A stretch of 64,000 nucleotides of DNA from an uncultured Acidobacteriota bacterium (GTDB lineage: Bacteria; Acidobacteriota; Thermoanaerobaculia; Multivoradales; UBA5704): NCBI GenBank assembly GCA_963770895.1, contig CAVYRF010000001.1, forward strand, positions 2,144,001 through 2,208,000, written 5' to 3'. This document shows, piece by piece, positions 16,901-37,500 of this stretch; position 1 is the first letter of the stretch; every line of letters begins with the position of its first letter. The notes beneath the pieces were generated by a model. The model did no database searches and was not told where the DNA came from. It was given only the letters and a program-made list of their open reading frames with translations. Both the position numbers and the translations under genes were made by a program.

Positions 16901-19900
16901 CGTCCGCCGGCACGAGACGCTGCGCACCCGGTTCGTCGAGGTCGAGGGCGACCCCCGGCAGGAGATCGGCGCCCCCTGGCGGGTGCCGCTGCCGCAGGTG
17001 GACCTGCGCGGCCTGGCGCGGGAGCGGCGCGCGGGCGAGCTCGCACGCCTGCGCGCCGAGGAGGCCGGCCGGCCGTTCAACCTCTCCCTCGGCGTCCGAG
17101 CTGAGGCGAGTACCGGCGGGCCACCGCGGTCGGCTGGCCGAGCTGAGGCGAGTGCCGGCCTGCTGCGGGCCGGCCTGGTGCGCCTGGACGAGGAGGAGCA
17201 CGCGCTCCTCCTCACCGTCCACCACATCGTCTACGACGGCTGGTCCGAGGGGGTGCTGATCGACGAGCTCACGACGCTCTACGCGGCGGCCCTCGCGGGA
17301 CGCCCCTCGCCGCTCGGCGAGCTCGCCGTGCAGTACGCCGACTTCGCCGCCTGGCAGCGCGCCTGGCCGCCGGAGGTGCTCGGGCGCCAGCTCGCCTGGT
17401 GGCGCGACGAGCTCGCGGGGGCACCCGCGGCGCTGCCGCTGCCGGTCGACCGGCAGCGCCCGGCGGCGCCGAGCTTCCGCGGCGCGAGCGCGATGCTCCG
17501 CCTGCCGGCGGCGGCGGCGGCGGCGCTCCGCCAGGCGGCGCGGCGGGAGGGGACGACGCTCTACATGCTGCTCCTCGCCGGCTTCGCGGCGCTCCTCGCG
17601 CGCGTCACGGGAGAGGAGGACCTGCTGGTCGGCACGCCGGTCGCCGACCGCCCGCGGCCGGAGGTCGAGGGGCTGATCGGGTTCTTCGTCAACACCCTGG
17701 TGATCCGGGCGCGGGCGGCCGGCGATCCGTCCTTCCGCCGCCTGCTCGCGGCGGTGCGCGACGCGGCGCTCGCCGCCTTCGCCCATCAGGACCTGCCCTT
17801 CGAGATGCTGGTCGAGGAGCTGCGGCCGGAGCGCGAGCGGTCGAGGAACCCGCTGGTCCAGGCGCTCTTCGCCTTCCAGGGCGCCGGCCAGGCCACGGTG
17901 GGCGACGGCACGGGGCTGCGCCTGGTGCGGCTCCCCTGGGCCGAGCGGTCGACGGCGAAGCTCGACCTCCTGCTGTCGGCGATGGAGATGCCGGTCGACG
18001 GCGACGAGGCGGAGCTCGCCCTGGTCCTGGAGTACGCGGCGGACCTCTTCACCGCGACGACCGCGGCGCGCCTCCTCGGCCACTACGGAGCGCTCGTCGC
18101 CGGGGCGGCGGCGGCGCCGGAGCTGCCGCTCTCCTGCCTGCCGCTCCTCTCCGCGCCCGAGCGCCACCAGCTCGCCCTGGAGTGGAACGACACGGCGTCG
18201 GGCTTCCCGCGCCGCACCGTGCACCGTCTGTTCGAGGAGCAGGCGGCGGCGCGGCCCGACGCGGCGGCCGTCGTCTGGGACGGTGGCGTGCTCACCTACG
18301 GCGAGCTCGACCGGCGCGCCGGCCGCGTCGCGCGCCGGCTGCAGCGGCTGGGAGCGGGTGTCGAGTCACGCGTCGCCGTCTGCGCCGAGCGCTCGGCGGA
18401 GCTGGTCGCAGTGCTCCTCGGCACCCTCAAGGCGGGCGCCGCCTACCTGCCGCTCGATCCGGCCTATCCGCGCGAGCGGCTGGCGCTGCTGCTGAAGGAC
18501 GCCGCGCCGGCGGCCGTGGTGGGGCCGCGGCGCCTGCTGGCGGCTCTCCCCGGTATGGCGCCCCGCCTGGCGATCGACGACGCCATCTCCGAGGCGGCCG
18601 AGGCGGCGGAGGCGGCCGAGGCGGACGCCGCAGCCATTGCCGCCGACGTGCCGCCGGCGAGCCTCGCCTACGTGCTCTATACCTCCGGCTCGACGGGCGC
18701 GCCCAAGGGGGTCGAGGTCAGCCATCGTGCGGTGGTGCGGCTGGTGCGCGAGGCGGGCTACGCGTCGTTCGGTCCCGGCGAGGTCTACCTCCAGCTGGCG
18801 CCGATGTCGTTCGACCTGGCGACCTTCGAGCTCTGGGGTTCGCTCCTCCACGGCGGCCGTCTGGCGCTCCTGCCGCCCGGACCGTTCACGCTGGCCGACG
18901 TGTACGCGGCGGTCGGGCGCCACGGGGTGACGACGCTCTGGCTGACGTCCGGCCTCTTCCACCTCGCGGTGGAGGAGGGGCTCGCGCCGCTCGGCGGCCT
19001 GCGCCAGCTGCTCGCCGGCGGCGACGTCCTGTCGCGCCCCCACGTGCTGCGGGCGCTCGCGGCCCTGCCGGGCGTCGAGCTCGTCAACGGCTACGGCCCG
19101 ACGGAGAACACGACGTTTTCGACCACCCACCGCCTGCGCGGTGGGCTGGCGGCGGGCGAGACGTCGGTGCCGATCGGGCGGCCGATCGCCGCCAGCCGCG
19201 CCTACGTGCTCGACCGCTGGCTCGCGCCGCTGCCGATCGCCTGCGTCGGGGAGCTCTACGTGGGCGGCGCCGGCGTGGCGCGCGGCTACCTCGGCCGTCC
19301 TGAGCTGACCGCCGAGCGCTTCGTGCCGGATCCGTTCGCGGAGGACCCGCGGGGCGAGGGCCGGCTCTACCACACGGGCGACCTCGCGCGGTGGCGGCCG
19401 GACGGCACGCTCGACTTCCTCGGCCGGCGCGACTTCCAGGTCAAGGTGCGCGGCTTCCGCGTCGAGCCCGGGGAGGTGGAGAGCGCGCTCCTCCGCCATC
19501 CGGGCGTGCGCGAGGCGGTGGTGACGGCGGCGGCGGAGGCGGCCGGCGGCCACCGGCTGGTCGCCTACTACGTAGCCGAGGGCGCCGACGGGCCGGCGCC
19601 GGCGGAGCTCCGCGTCCACCTGCGCGAGAACCTGCCGGAGCACATGGTGCCGTCGCTCTTCGTGCCCATGGCGGAGCTGCCGCTCAACGCCAACGGCAAG
19701 GTCGACCGGCGGGCGCTGCCGTCGCCGGAGATCTCGGCCGGCGCCGGCGAGGAAGGCGGCGCCCGGCCTGTCGTCGCGCCACGCGGCGCCGTCGAGGAGG
19801 TGATCGCCGGGATCTGGGCGGAGGTGCTGGGCGTCTCCGGCGCGATCTCCGTCGAGGAGAGCTTCTTCCACCTGGGCGGTCACTCGCTGCTCGCCATCCG

Positions 19901-34500: not shown

Positions 34501-37500
34501 GACGTCGAAGGAGATCGGCGTCTTCTGCAGCACCCGATCCTCGGCGGTCAGGCCGAACGCCTGCTGCATCCAGAGCAGCCGGTTGACGACGGCGCGATGG
34601 CTGTTCATCGCCCCCTTGGGCCGCCCGGTCGAGCCCGAGGTGTAGATCACGTAGGCGAGGTCGTCGGGATCGGCCGCCGGGAGCGGCGGGTCGGAGCGGT
34701 CCGGCCCGGAGGCGAGGAGCGCGGCGAGGTCGATCTCGACGATCTCCGGCAGCTCCGGCAGCTCCGGCGTCTCCGGCGTCTCTGGCGTCTCCGCCATCGC
34801 CGCACGGTGCCGCGGCAGGGCGCTCGCCGCGGCACCGTGGGTCAGGAGCACACCGACCGCGGCGTCCTCGACCATGTAGGCCAGCCGCTCGGCGGGGTAG
34901 GCCGGGTCGAGCGGCACGTAGGCGGCGCCCGCGGCGAGGATGGCGACGAGGCCGACCATCAGCTCCAGCGAGCGCTCGGCACAGAGGCCGACGAGGACGC
35001 CGGGCCCAGCGCCCTTGCCGGCGAGCCGCCGCGCCAGCCGCTGCGCCGCATCGCCCAACTGCCGATAGGTGAGCTCGTCGCCCGCCAACGAGACCGCGAC
35101 CGCGCCGGGCGTGCGCTCGACCTGCGCCGCGATCAGCTGGTAGAGGGTGGTCCCCGCGAGCTCCGCGCATTCACCGAGCCATGCCGGGGTGTCGTTCCAC
35201 TCGCGGAGCTGCTGCCGCTCGGCGGCGGACAGCAGCGGCAGGTCGTCGAGGCGGCGCCCGGCCGGCGCGCCGGCCAGGTCGACGGCGACGCCCGCGAGGA
35301 GGGCGGCAAACCGCTCGGCCAGGCGGGCGATCGTCGCCCGGTCGAACAGGTCGGTGGCGTGCTCCAAGTAGCCGATGGCGCCGCCGTCCGCCTCGACGAC
35401 GCTCAAGGTCAGGTCGAGCTTCGCGGTGCGGCCGGCCAACCGCAGGGGCTCGAGGGTCAGGCCGGGCAGGGTGAGGGCGCCCAAGGGGGCGTTCTGCAGG
35501 GCGAGCATCACCTGGACGACGGGCGAGCGGGCGAGGTCGCGCACCGGCGCCAGCGCCTCGACCAGCTTCTCGAACGGCAGCTCCTGGTGGGCGTAGGCGG
35601 TGAGCGCCGTCTGCCGCAGCCGCGGCAGGAGGGTCGCCAGGGTGTCGTCCGCGGCGATCTCGGCGCGCAGCACCAGGGTGTTGACGAAGAGGCCGATCAG
35701 CCCCTCGGTTTCGCCGCGCGTGCGGCCGGCGATCGGCGAGCCCACCGCCAGGTCGCGCTGCCCGGTGAGGCGGTAGAGCAGCACGTCGAAAGCGGCGAGG
35801 AGGAGCATGTAGAGCGTCACCCCGGAGCGCCGCGCCGCCGCCCCCAGGGCGCTCCACAGCGCCGGCGGCAGGGCGAAGCCGCGCTCGGCGCCGCGGAAGC
35901 TCTGCCGGGCGGGGCGCGGCCGGTCGGCCGGCAGCTCGAGCGCTGGGGGCAGGCCGGCGAGGACGGCGCGCCAGTGGGCGAGCTCGCCCGCCAGCACGTC
36001 CCCCGCCATCCATCGCCGCTGCCACGCCGCGTAGTCGGCGTACTGGATGGGCAGCGCCGCGAGCGGCGACGGCCGCCGGGCGACCGCCGCCGCGTAGAGC
36101 GCGCCGAGCTCGTGGACGAGGATGCCCATCGACCAGCCGTCGGAGACAATGTGGTGCATCGTCGCCACGAGCAGGTGATCGGCCGCCGAGCGGCGCAGCA
36201 GGACGGTGCGGAGGCCGGCCGGCCGCGGTGGCCGGCCGGCACTCGCCTGAGCTCGCGGACCGCGCGCGAGGTCGAACGGCCGCGCCGCAAGGGCGGCCGC
36301 CAGGTCGGCCTCGGCGGCGGCGGCCGCCGCCGCCGGCAGCCCGCCGAGGTCGATCCGCGGCAGCTCGGGAGCGGCCCCGGCGCCCGCCCGCTGGAACGGC
36401 GTGCCGCCGCTCGCCCCGTAGGTGGCGCCGAGGACCTCGTGGCGGCGGGCGATCTCGCCGAAGGCGGCGGCCAGGGCGGCGACCTCGAGCCCGCCGCGCA
36501 GGCGCACCGCGGCGGCGAGGTTGTAGGCGCTGCCGCCAGGGGCCAGGCGGTCGAGGAACCACAGGCGCTCCTGGGCGAAGGAGAGCGGCAGCGGCGTGCC
36601 GTCGAGCGGCCGCGGTGCCGCTGGGATCGGCGGCGGGATCGGCGCCCCGGCCTCCATCGCAGTGCGCTCCCGGCGCGCCGTTTCCAGCCGCCGGGCCAAG
36701 CCGGCGACGGTCGGCGACTCGAAGAGCGCGCGCAGGGGGAGCTGGACGCCCAGCGCCTCGCGCAGCCGCGACACCAGCCGCGTGGCGAGGAGCGAATGGC
36801 CGCCGGCGGCGAAGAAGTCGTCGTCGAGGCCGACCCGCGGCAGCCCGAGGACCTCGCTCCACAGGCCGGCGACGAGCTCCTCGGTCGGCGTCCTCGGTGC
36901 CGCCGTCTCGCCGGTCTGCCAATCCGGCGCGGGCAGCCGCCGGAGGTCGAGCTTGCCATGGGAGGTCAGCGGCAGCTCCGGGAGCGCGACGAAGGCCGCC
37001 GGCACCATGTGGGCGGGAAGGCGGAGGGCGAGGTGGGCGCGGAGGTCCGCGGCGAGCGCCGCGGCATCGCCGCCGTCCCGCCGCGGCACGACATAGGCCA
37101 CCAGCCGCGGGCCGTCCCCGGCCGCCACCCCTGCCACCGCCGCCACCAGCGCGGTGGCGACCGCCGGGTGCTCGGCGAGCGCCGCCTCGACCTCTCCCGG
37201 CTCGATGCGGAAGCCGCGGATCTTGAGCTGCTGGTCGAGGCGGCCTGAGAACTCGAGGTCGCCCGTGGCGAGGAAGCGCGCGCGGTCTCCCGAGCGGTAC
37301 CAGCGCCGGCCCGCCGCGGCGACGAACCTCTCCGCCGTCAGCTGCGGTTGGCCGAGGTACTCGCGCGCCACGCCGGCGCCGCCGATCCACAGCTCGCCGG
37401 CGACGCCGATCGGCTGCGGCCGGCCGCCGGCGTCGCGCACGCCGACCTCCACGTTGCCTAAGGGCCTGCCGAGAAGCGAGCGGGTCGGGGGCTCGCCCGG

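Follow-up and report, generated by a model that had tools for sequence, protein, structure and literature searches.

Three in-frame inserts in two oppositely oriented synthetase genes

The stretch analysed here, the window, comprises 64,000 nucleotides of an uncultured Acidobacteriota bacterium (genome G000, contig C1, positions 2144001-2208000; the assembly is 8.16 Mb, 71% G+C and in three contigs). Two of its open reading frames (ORFs), which run in opposite directions, encode nonribosomal peptide synthetases (NRPSs), and three of their condensation (C) domains are interrupted in frame by a palindromic unit of 42 bp. The relevant features are listed below; the C domains were delimited with a hidden Markov model (HMM) built from this genome.

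13638..26657 (plus strand) and 28513..43602 (minus strand): the oppositely oriented NRPS genes that host the inserts
16764..18170, plus strand: C domain hosting site 1, LCL-like, after a T domain (subtype taken from the neighbouring domain)
17097..17159, plus strand: site 1, a 42-bp unit (17097-17138) and a 21-nt half unit (17139-17159)
20076..21527, plus strand: C domain hosting site 2, 81% identical to its orthologue P0001 with the insert gap included
20433..20516, plus strand: site 2, two 42-bp units in tandem, the hairpin of the second at 20490-20516
31882..33225, minus strand: paralogous C domain with an empty site, in the same gene as site 3, the boundary lying at 32889
35209..36591, minus strand: C domain hosting site 3, the insert being residues 112-125 of the AlphaFold2 model
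36214..36255, minus strand: site 3, a single 42-bp unit with its hairpin at 36240-36214 (perfect 11-bp stem, 5-nt loop)

The initial annotation of this DNA had reported in-frame inserts of 1.5, 2 and 1 copies, each placed after a PF(D/N)LxxG(P/V) motif, and this description was confirmed: all three have that motif upstream and L(L)R downstream. Site 1 is translated in frame as RAEASTGGPPRSAG-RAEASAG. At up to three mismatches the 42-mer matches the window three times, against 0.00 expected from 100 shuffles, and Tandem Repeats Finder returned 20432-20517 as 2.0 copies of period 42.

A near-identical paralogue of the site-3 domain had been described as empty at 32880-32910, and it is indeed uninterrupted there. 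The two domains share 84% amino acid identity, and their DNA is about 0.8-1.0 identical (mostly at least 0.9) from roughly -110 to +1700 around the site. A recombination breakpoint at the unit was considered and rejected, as the block of identity begins about 110 nt upstream and not at the unit itself. The high-identity block is shared by two adjacent modules of the 28513..43602 gene (31882-36591, minus strand) and continues for at least 1.7 kb downstream, which points to a recent module duplication or conversion.

The unit occupies one codon boundary in 27 condensation domains

The HMM, built from 25 C domains of G000, gave 295 merged hits, of which the 276 covering at least 330 of the 443 profile positions were retained and 19 partial hits dropped. 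Twenty-seven of these 276 full C-family domains carry the unit, spread over 19 of the 78 ORFs that hold such domains; the three window sites are real, therefore, but not the whole. The stretch from PFDL to LLR has its canonical 12 residues in 241 of the 276 domains and is lengthened in the carriers by 14, 21, 28 or 42 unit-derived residues, one carrier additionally missing one codon downstream of the insert. Nineteen carriers hold one unit, six hold two, one holds one and a half and one holds three, giving 35 full units and a half unit genome-wide, with 33 distinct full-unit sequences.

Orientation and frame are identical in all 27 carriers. The insertion point is a single codon boundary, between PFDLxxG(P/T/S/V) and LLR, and lies 20 codons before HHxxxDG, a spacing that holds in every carrier apart from three hosts with a different distance to HHxxxD. 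All carriers bar one follow a T domain and are LCL-like (26/27); the other is the first domain of its ORF. The hosts match Pfam PF00668 above its cut-off and contain the HHxxxDG motif, as NRPS condensation domains do. Twenty-seven C domains, mostly of LCL type and otherwise divergent, have thus received the unit at one homologous codon boundary, in fixed orientation and frame and with no target-site duplication. These 27 carriers with one shared boundary support the proposal of the initial annotation that a site-preferring, frame-preserving element, or a conversion tract, adds peptide loops of variable copy number.

A whole-genome nhmmer search (--max) returned 36 hits at E < 0.01, all inside the 27 carrier domains, and found no unit elsewhere in the genome; the next hit, at E = 0.3, is a chance partial match, as are all of the five best non-carrier hits, which we inspected. 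Fuzzy matching at up to nine mismatches, which would reveal extragenic or diverged copies, likewise produced chance partial matches only.

The NRPS load of this genome is very large, as positions 4061-63821 of the window exemplify: besides its 276 full C-family domains in 78 ORFs, it has frames of up to 12,745 amino acids. Genomes of the same genus give between 24 and 252 matches to a single C-domain query.

Orthologous sites in related genomes are empty

Orthologous DNA, 87-94% identical, occurs in related genomes of the same family, and the inserts are missing from it at all three window sites. At site 2, genomes G423 and G428 lack exactly the 84 nt and read GGACC followed across the junction by CCTCCTGCGC; set against them, the flanks in the window keep the ancestral CCC and CTC codons to either side of the junction, with neither duplication nor flank co-conversion. 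G020 and G024 give the same two-piece match. Site 3 is empty in G423, G020 and G011, relative to which the window carries 42 additional nt and lacks 3 nt, namely one of two adjacent CTN codons; this loss, at a CTG-CTC repeat, looks like the trace of a misaligned anneal. At site 1, G423 lacks exactly 63 nt and the window also shows several changes among the six codons upstream. Within 17070-17096, four of six codons differ from G423 (CGC>AAC, GCC>TCC, CGC>CTC, CCC>GTC), far above the surrounding DNA, and either relaxed constraint after insertion or an imprecise event is a possible cause.

The same picture emerges from other sources. Protein P0001, from another assembly, is 80-81% identical to the hosts of sites 1 and 2 with gaps included, and its gaps fall exactly at the inserts (21 residues at site 1, 28 residues at site 2). 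One 521-nt soil-metagenome contig joins window position 20431 to 20516 without the insert.

The unit was then sought directly. A 34-nt pattern at up to two mismatches gave no hit in 40 relatives, nine of them of the same genus, against 32 hits in G000. At up to three mismatches, 20 of 400 genomes of the class gave one hit each, on the order of the reversed-pattern control, whereas G000 gave 35 hits and none for the reversed pattern. Exact-pattern scans returned nothing from genome_contigs (two patterns) or from metagenome_contigs, collections that may omit the window's own genome. A protein search with a 65-residue insert-bearing piece, covering proteins of 115-2000 residues and thus leaving giant NRPSs outside its range, recovered empty-site homologues only. 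Source records assign near relatives of the host proteins to Thermoanaerobaculia metagenome-assembled genomes. The census of copies in this genome and its relatives that the initial annotation had called for thus stands at 27 carrier domains, no intergenic copy and none in the 40 relatives.

Units are alike where their hosts have diverged

Unit and host identities were compared over 347 pairs of carriers with host domains below 70% identity, taking 90 nt of flank on each side. Within these pairs the units share 82-84% identity (88% at third codon positions), whereas the two flanks reach 58% and 63% (52% and 60% at third positions), as they do between non-carriers. Identity falls at the edges of the unit and stays high only in the few adjoining codons that are conserved in all C domains. 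There is no relation between unit and host identity (Spearman 0.055, p = 0.30); indeed, units 98-100% identical occur in host domains only 42-53% identical.

The distribution of the insert on domain trees is correspondingly scattered. On a FastTree phylogeny of all 276 domains, with insert columns removed, it requires 21 state changes, where shuffled labels averaged 25.9 and never fell below 22; a maximum-likelihood tree of the 27 carriers and their 35 nearest non-carriers also requires 21. A single carrier clade is rejected by the approximately unbiased (AU) test (delta lnL 1831, p = 2.5e-8), and in 13 of the 27 cases a carrier's closest match within the genome is a domain without the unit. 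Carriers make up 25-31 of 135 best flank matches where 17.9 are expected, a slight enrichment. Long-tract gene conversion was rejected, since from about 30 nt outwards the identity of flanks bears no relation to that of units.

Because the units are alike in diverged hosts, the orthologous sites are empty and the unit was not found in relatives, we conclude that the unit has spread recently, as DNA, within this lineage. The initial annotation had anticipated a contrary outcome, in which only three sites would exist and descend from one ancestral insertion; the carriers instead number 27 in 19 ORFs, their monophyly is rejected and the orthologues of all three window sites are empty.

Make-up of the unit

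The 42-mer (19 G, 16 C, 4 A and 3 T, counted by eye; GC skew about 0.09) consists of a head at positions 1-15 (CGAGCTGAGGCGAGT), stem arms at 16-26 and 32-42, and a loop at 27-31. The site-3 hairpin folds as RNA (free energy -38.8 kcal/mol, z = -2.71) and as DNA (-25.2 kcal/mol, z = -3.46), and its perfect 11-bp stem and 5-nt loop are as first described. Pairing holds in 345 of the 363 stem cells of the 33 distinct units, compared with 8-52% when the 3' arm is slid by 1-3 nt. G-T cells number 26, against 5 of A-C/C-A. Stem pair 22-36 takes several forms (CG 12, GC 5, TA 1, TG 4, GT 2, GG 8, AG 1), and one unit has AT at pair 19-39. The mid-stem G-G mismatch, present in 8 of the 33 distinct units, shows that pairing is not strictly kept. 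The compensatory states belong to subfamilies and therefore represent few independent events, so that they offer weak evidence for selection on the hairpin.

Variation within the unit is concentrated at seven subfamily-defining positions. Within the head, deviations affect 3.5% of cells at positions 10-15 and 16% at positions 1-9. By codon position, changes are distributed 70/40/24 over first, second and third positions, the opposite of what a sequence kept for its peptide displays. The codons that had been flagged as uncommon, CGA, GCT and AGT, are rare in the NRPS ORFs, with 4.4% of Arg, 4.3% of Ala and 2.1% of Ser codons, respectively. The half unit ends at an internal GCCGGC repeat. Rfam contains no match to the unit; the best hit, mir-9209, was dismissed at E = 0.81.

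The insert in the protein

The site-3 host was modelled with AlphaFold2 (model m6ef74e89dbbc; 16-row alignment; mean predicted local distance difference test (pLDDT) score 86.4). Residues 112-122 of the insert have pLDDT values below 50 and no secondary structure, and the insert lies between helix 87-103 and strand 127-135. The modelling suggested in the initial annotation thus predicts a low-confidence segment between a helix and a strand. From its place in the fold we infer a surface loop, and the peptide looks like a tolerated, disordered one.

Extra residues unrelated to the unit also occur nearby. The carrier domain at G000:C2:1959756 has about 15 of them in the next beta-hairpin, and among ten domain loci inspected in nine genomes, one (L015, G007:C337) has 18 after PFDLARGPLLR, again in the next beta-hairpin. 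Loops around the insertion region seem to be generally permissive.

Target DNA and candidate transposases

The empty target belongs to a family of exact words of up to 33 nt (GCCGTTCGACCTGGCGCGCGGGCCG followed by CTGCTGCG), which occurs in 18 places and is among the most repeated strings of the genome. With 2,758 occurrences of CTGCTGCG alone, the specificity cannot stem from a short target; CCGCTGCTGCG occurs 234 times. CTGCTGCG lies downstream of the insertion point in 22 of 27 carriers and in 64 of 168 non-carriers (p = 3.6e-5). The last four nucleotides upstream vary (GCCG, CCCA, AACG, CGTC and others). With the origin placed from GC skew only, which leaves the strand assignment uncertain for contig C1, no replication-strand bias was detected (leading/lagging 19/8 for carriers against 206/43 for non-carriers, p = 0.12).

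The genome has a single PF01797 (Y1) match, an IS200-type ORF of 143 amino acids at C2:1635231-1635587, and no PF07282 match that would indicate a TnpB-type gene. In the 3.4 kb of the Y1 locus, none of 18 inverted repeats resembles the unit; the RAYT- or IS200-like transposase flanked by the unit, for which the initial annotation had advised a search, thus comes down to one Y1 gene with unrelated flanks. Within that locus (L013, G000:C2:1633731-1637087), near-identical ORF translations at about 961-1344 and 2086-2517 stand on both sides of the minus-strand ORF at 1456-1887, which suggests a direct repeat of several hundred nucleotides around the Y1 gene.

Other repeats are abundant in this genome. 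The commonest exact 24-mers derive from CRISPR-like repeats: two 36-nt types with 79 and 62 copies at G000:C2 ~398825-410508, and a third type at G000:C1 ~1444435-1460374 whose variants have 28, 19 and 9 copies. Three dispersed families unrelated to the unit (C1:1365349; C2:4683931; C1:809844) lie nearly all outside ORFs of at least 1,000 amino acids and are presumably intergenic; one, with a core no shorter than 114 nt, occupies 72 places, one is palindromic and occupies 32 places, about 6% of them inside long ORFs, and one occupies 14 places. In the window, a tandem repeat of period 31 (50891-50960, 2.2 copies) lies within another NRPS ORF.

How the unit may spread

Any mechanism is constrained by six observations: strict specificity for the homologous site in a fixed orientation, the absence of target duplication, the exact insertion at site 2 without donor flank bases, the loss of one repeated CTN codon at site 3, the tandem arrays together with a half unit ending at the internal GCCGGC repeat, and the lack of copies elsewhere despite the many genomic occurrences of CTGCTGCG and CCGCTGCTGCG. 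With moderate confidence, we favour the view that the unit is a lineage-specific, non-coding cassette resident in C-domain genes, which host machinery copies between paralogous domains. The empty target is among the most repeated exact strings, and paralogue-to-paralogue copying anchored there is therefore favoured. In such a scheme a carrier domain would be copied into an empty paralogue by the cell's replication or repair, through template switching or break repair. The highly conserved DNA encoding PFDLARGP and, beyond the boundary, LLR would act as the anchor, by homology or microhomology, and return to the recipient would follow within a few bases of the hairpin, which closes the unit at its 3' end. 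Slippage, or deletion between GCCGGC repeats, would account for the tandem copies (1, 1.5, 2 and 3). Each unit would be translated as a disordered loop of about 14 residues, placed after helix 3 and before the strand that runs to HHxxxDG, which the enzyme tolerates, the unit peptide itself being under no selection.

Several points weigh against this reading. The homology of 24 + 9 nt falls short of what classical RecA-dependent conversion requires, and such conversion usually carries flanks along with it, of which site 2 shows no sign. Nowhere does the unit vary less than in its GCGAGT head and its stem, and the compensatory stem pairs (22-36, and the one AT at 19-39) would fit recognition by a protein, although the covariation, with its few independent events and its 8/33 G-G units, argues weakly either way. 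The enrichment of CTGCTGCG downstream of carriers could likewise be a target preference. As between a mobile element and conversion, the evidence nonetheless leans to homology-directed copying.

A more speculative form of the copying hypothesis, which we regard as unlikely, is that of a selfish, 'domain-homing' cassette, whose hairpin drives its own copying into empty paralogues so that the coding DNA of the domain serves as attachment site. The route would be a template switch terminated by the hairpin, or repair of breaks made at the empty site by an unrecognised nuclease. [quoted passage not shown]

A doubtful, though not negligible, alternative is that a dedicated enzyme, for instance a Y1 transposase (IS200/IS605- or RAYT-like) or some other recombinase, mobilises the unit in trans as a site-specific, non-autonomous element. 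It would recognise the hairpin with its conserved head and insert it next to the C-domain target. The exact site-2 insertion, free of duplication and with flanks unchanged, agrees with such an enzyme, as does the orientation fixed in 27/27 carriers; the conserved GCGAGT head and stem, with some compensatory or wobble pairs (345/363 paired; 26 G-T against 5 A-C/C-A), the downstream CTGCTGCG enrichment and the one Y1 gene in the genome also agree with it. However, no copy lies off the C-domain site despite 2,758 occurrences of CTGCTGCG and 234 of CCGCTGCTGCG, the base directly upstream of the insert is variable, the inverted repeats flanking the 143-residue IS200-type ORF bear no relation to the unit, a TnpB-type match and a leading/lagging bias (p = 0.12) are both lacking, and the loss of 3 nt at a repeated codon of site 3 suits annealing better than transposition.

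That the insert is functional, and is kept by selection instead of being recent, we consider decidedly improbable. The hairpin might act in mRNA or single-stranded DNA (pausing, stability or processing), or the peptide loop in docking or regulation. The hairpin is stable, G-T accounts for most of its non-Watson-Crick pairs (26 against 5), a pairing tolerated on the sense strand only, and every copy is in frame. Yet frame preservation is expected from survivorship alone, given the length of 42 nt, and the insert is absent from orthologues 87-94% identical, is carried by 27 of 276 domains only, varies from one to three copies with one half unit, and changes in ways that mostly alter the amino acid (70/40/24). 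The stem G-G mismatch in 8 of 33 distinct units and the lack of an Rfam match (best E = 0.81) also count against a function.

One ancient insertion, inherited through module duplication and lost from most descendants, accords with the few close carrier pairs (C1:1598406/C1:1622618 at 88% amino acid identity, another at 76%) and with a slight tendency of carriers to cluster (21 changes on the tree, the null averaging 25.9), but we count it as already refuted by the AU test against one clade (p = 2.5e-8), by third-position identities of 88% in units against 52-60% in flanks, by the empty orthologues of all three window sites and by the failure to find the unit in the nine same-genus genomes searched. 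An assembly or sequencing artefact, for which nothing speaks, deserves practically no credence, because it would not respect reading frame or domain homology, as 33 distinct in-frame units with subfamily structure do at 27 homologous positions.

Implications

A short repeat that is restricted to one site of a paralogous domain family, and that multiplies nevertheless, stands between classical transposition and gene conversion. The 27 carriers amount to natural experiments in which the loop between the helix ending in PFDLxxGP and the HHxxxDG strand accepts 14-42 extra residues, which is useful for the tagging and engineering of C domains. Filled and empty sites, orthologous and paralogous, also provide a clean system for asking how repeats move in assembly-line genes, a question that arises for GRINS as well.

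Comparison with known systems

We found no description, in searches of full-text literature, of a palindromic repeat confined to a C-domain site. Homing elements offer one point of comparison. Inteins and group I introns home into one conserved site of a gene family, where empty and occupied alleles coexist and occupied sites are copied into empty ones with little change to the flanks; the unit differs in that it encodes no endonuclease or splicing function and stays in the protein. We know of no nuclease that cuts the empty C-domain site. Miniature transposable elements with inverted repeats (MITEs), which have these repeats at both termini and duplicate their target site, differ too: the inverted arms here span only positions 16-42, with the 5' 15 nt outside them, and there is no target-site duplication. 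IS200/IS605 elements insert 3' of a fixed tetra- or pentanucleotide and with a strand bias relative to replication, whereas the four nucleotides upstream of the unit are variable and no strand bias is seen (p = 0.12).

Among palindromic repeats, repetitive extragenic palindromic (REP) sequences are extragenic and dispersed, often form inverted doublets and flank the gene of their REP-associated tyrosine transposase (RAYT). The unit resembles REPs and REPINs in its short GC-rich hairpin, in the conserved head 5' of the stem and in its many copies per genome; it differs in that none of the 36 significant matches is extragenic, the arrays are direct tandems, and the flanks of the sole Y1 gene are unrelated. 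Rickettsia palindromic elements (RPEs), as described in PMC10969869, are about 150 bp long and sit in frame in unrelated genes, where they are translated. The likeness, on that account, extends to the palindrome, the in-frame position in coding genes and the seemingly tolerated extra peptide; the difference is that the present unit measures 42 bp, forms one family only and is restricted to one boundary of one domain family. The initial annotation had invoked REPs and RPEs, an analogy that does not extend to membership, as no copy lies outside C domains and the sole Y1 gene has unrelated flanks.

By analogy, the closest published system in biology is GRINS. In Nivina et al. 2021 (PMC8256042), these are defined as more than 500 bp long, more than 80% identical within a cluster and with |GC| and |TA| skews that average above 0.15; the sequence that they recode belongs to the existing protein, and spread by gene conversion is proposed with the mechanism left open. 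Measured against that description, the unit falls outside the definition, being a 42-bp addition with a skew of about 0.09 and a hairpin, and being shared across many clusters. What the two have in common is repeated DNA in assembly-line synthetase genes, at homologous positions of paralogous modules (PMC8256042).

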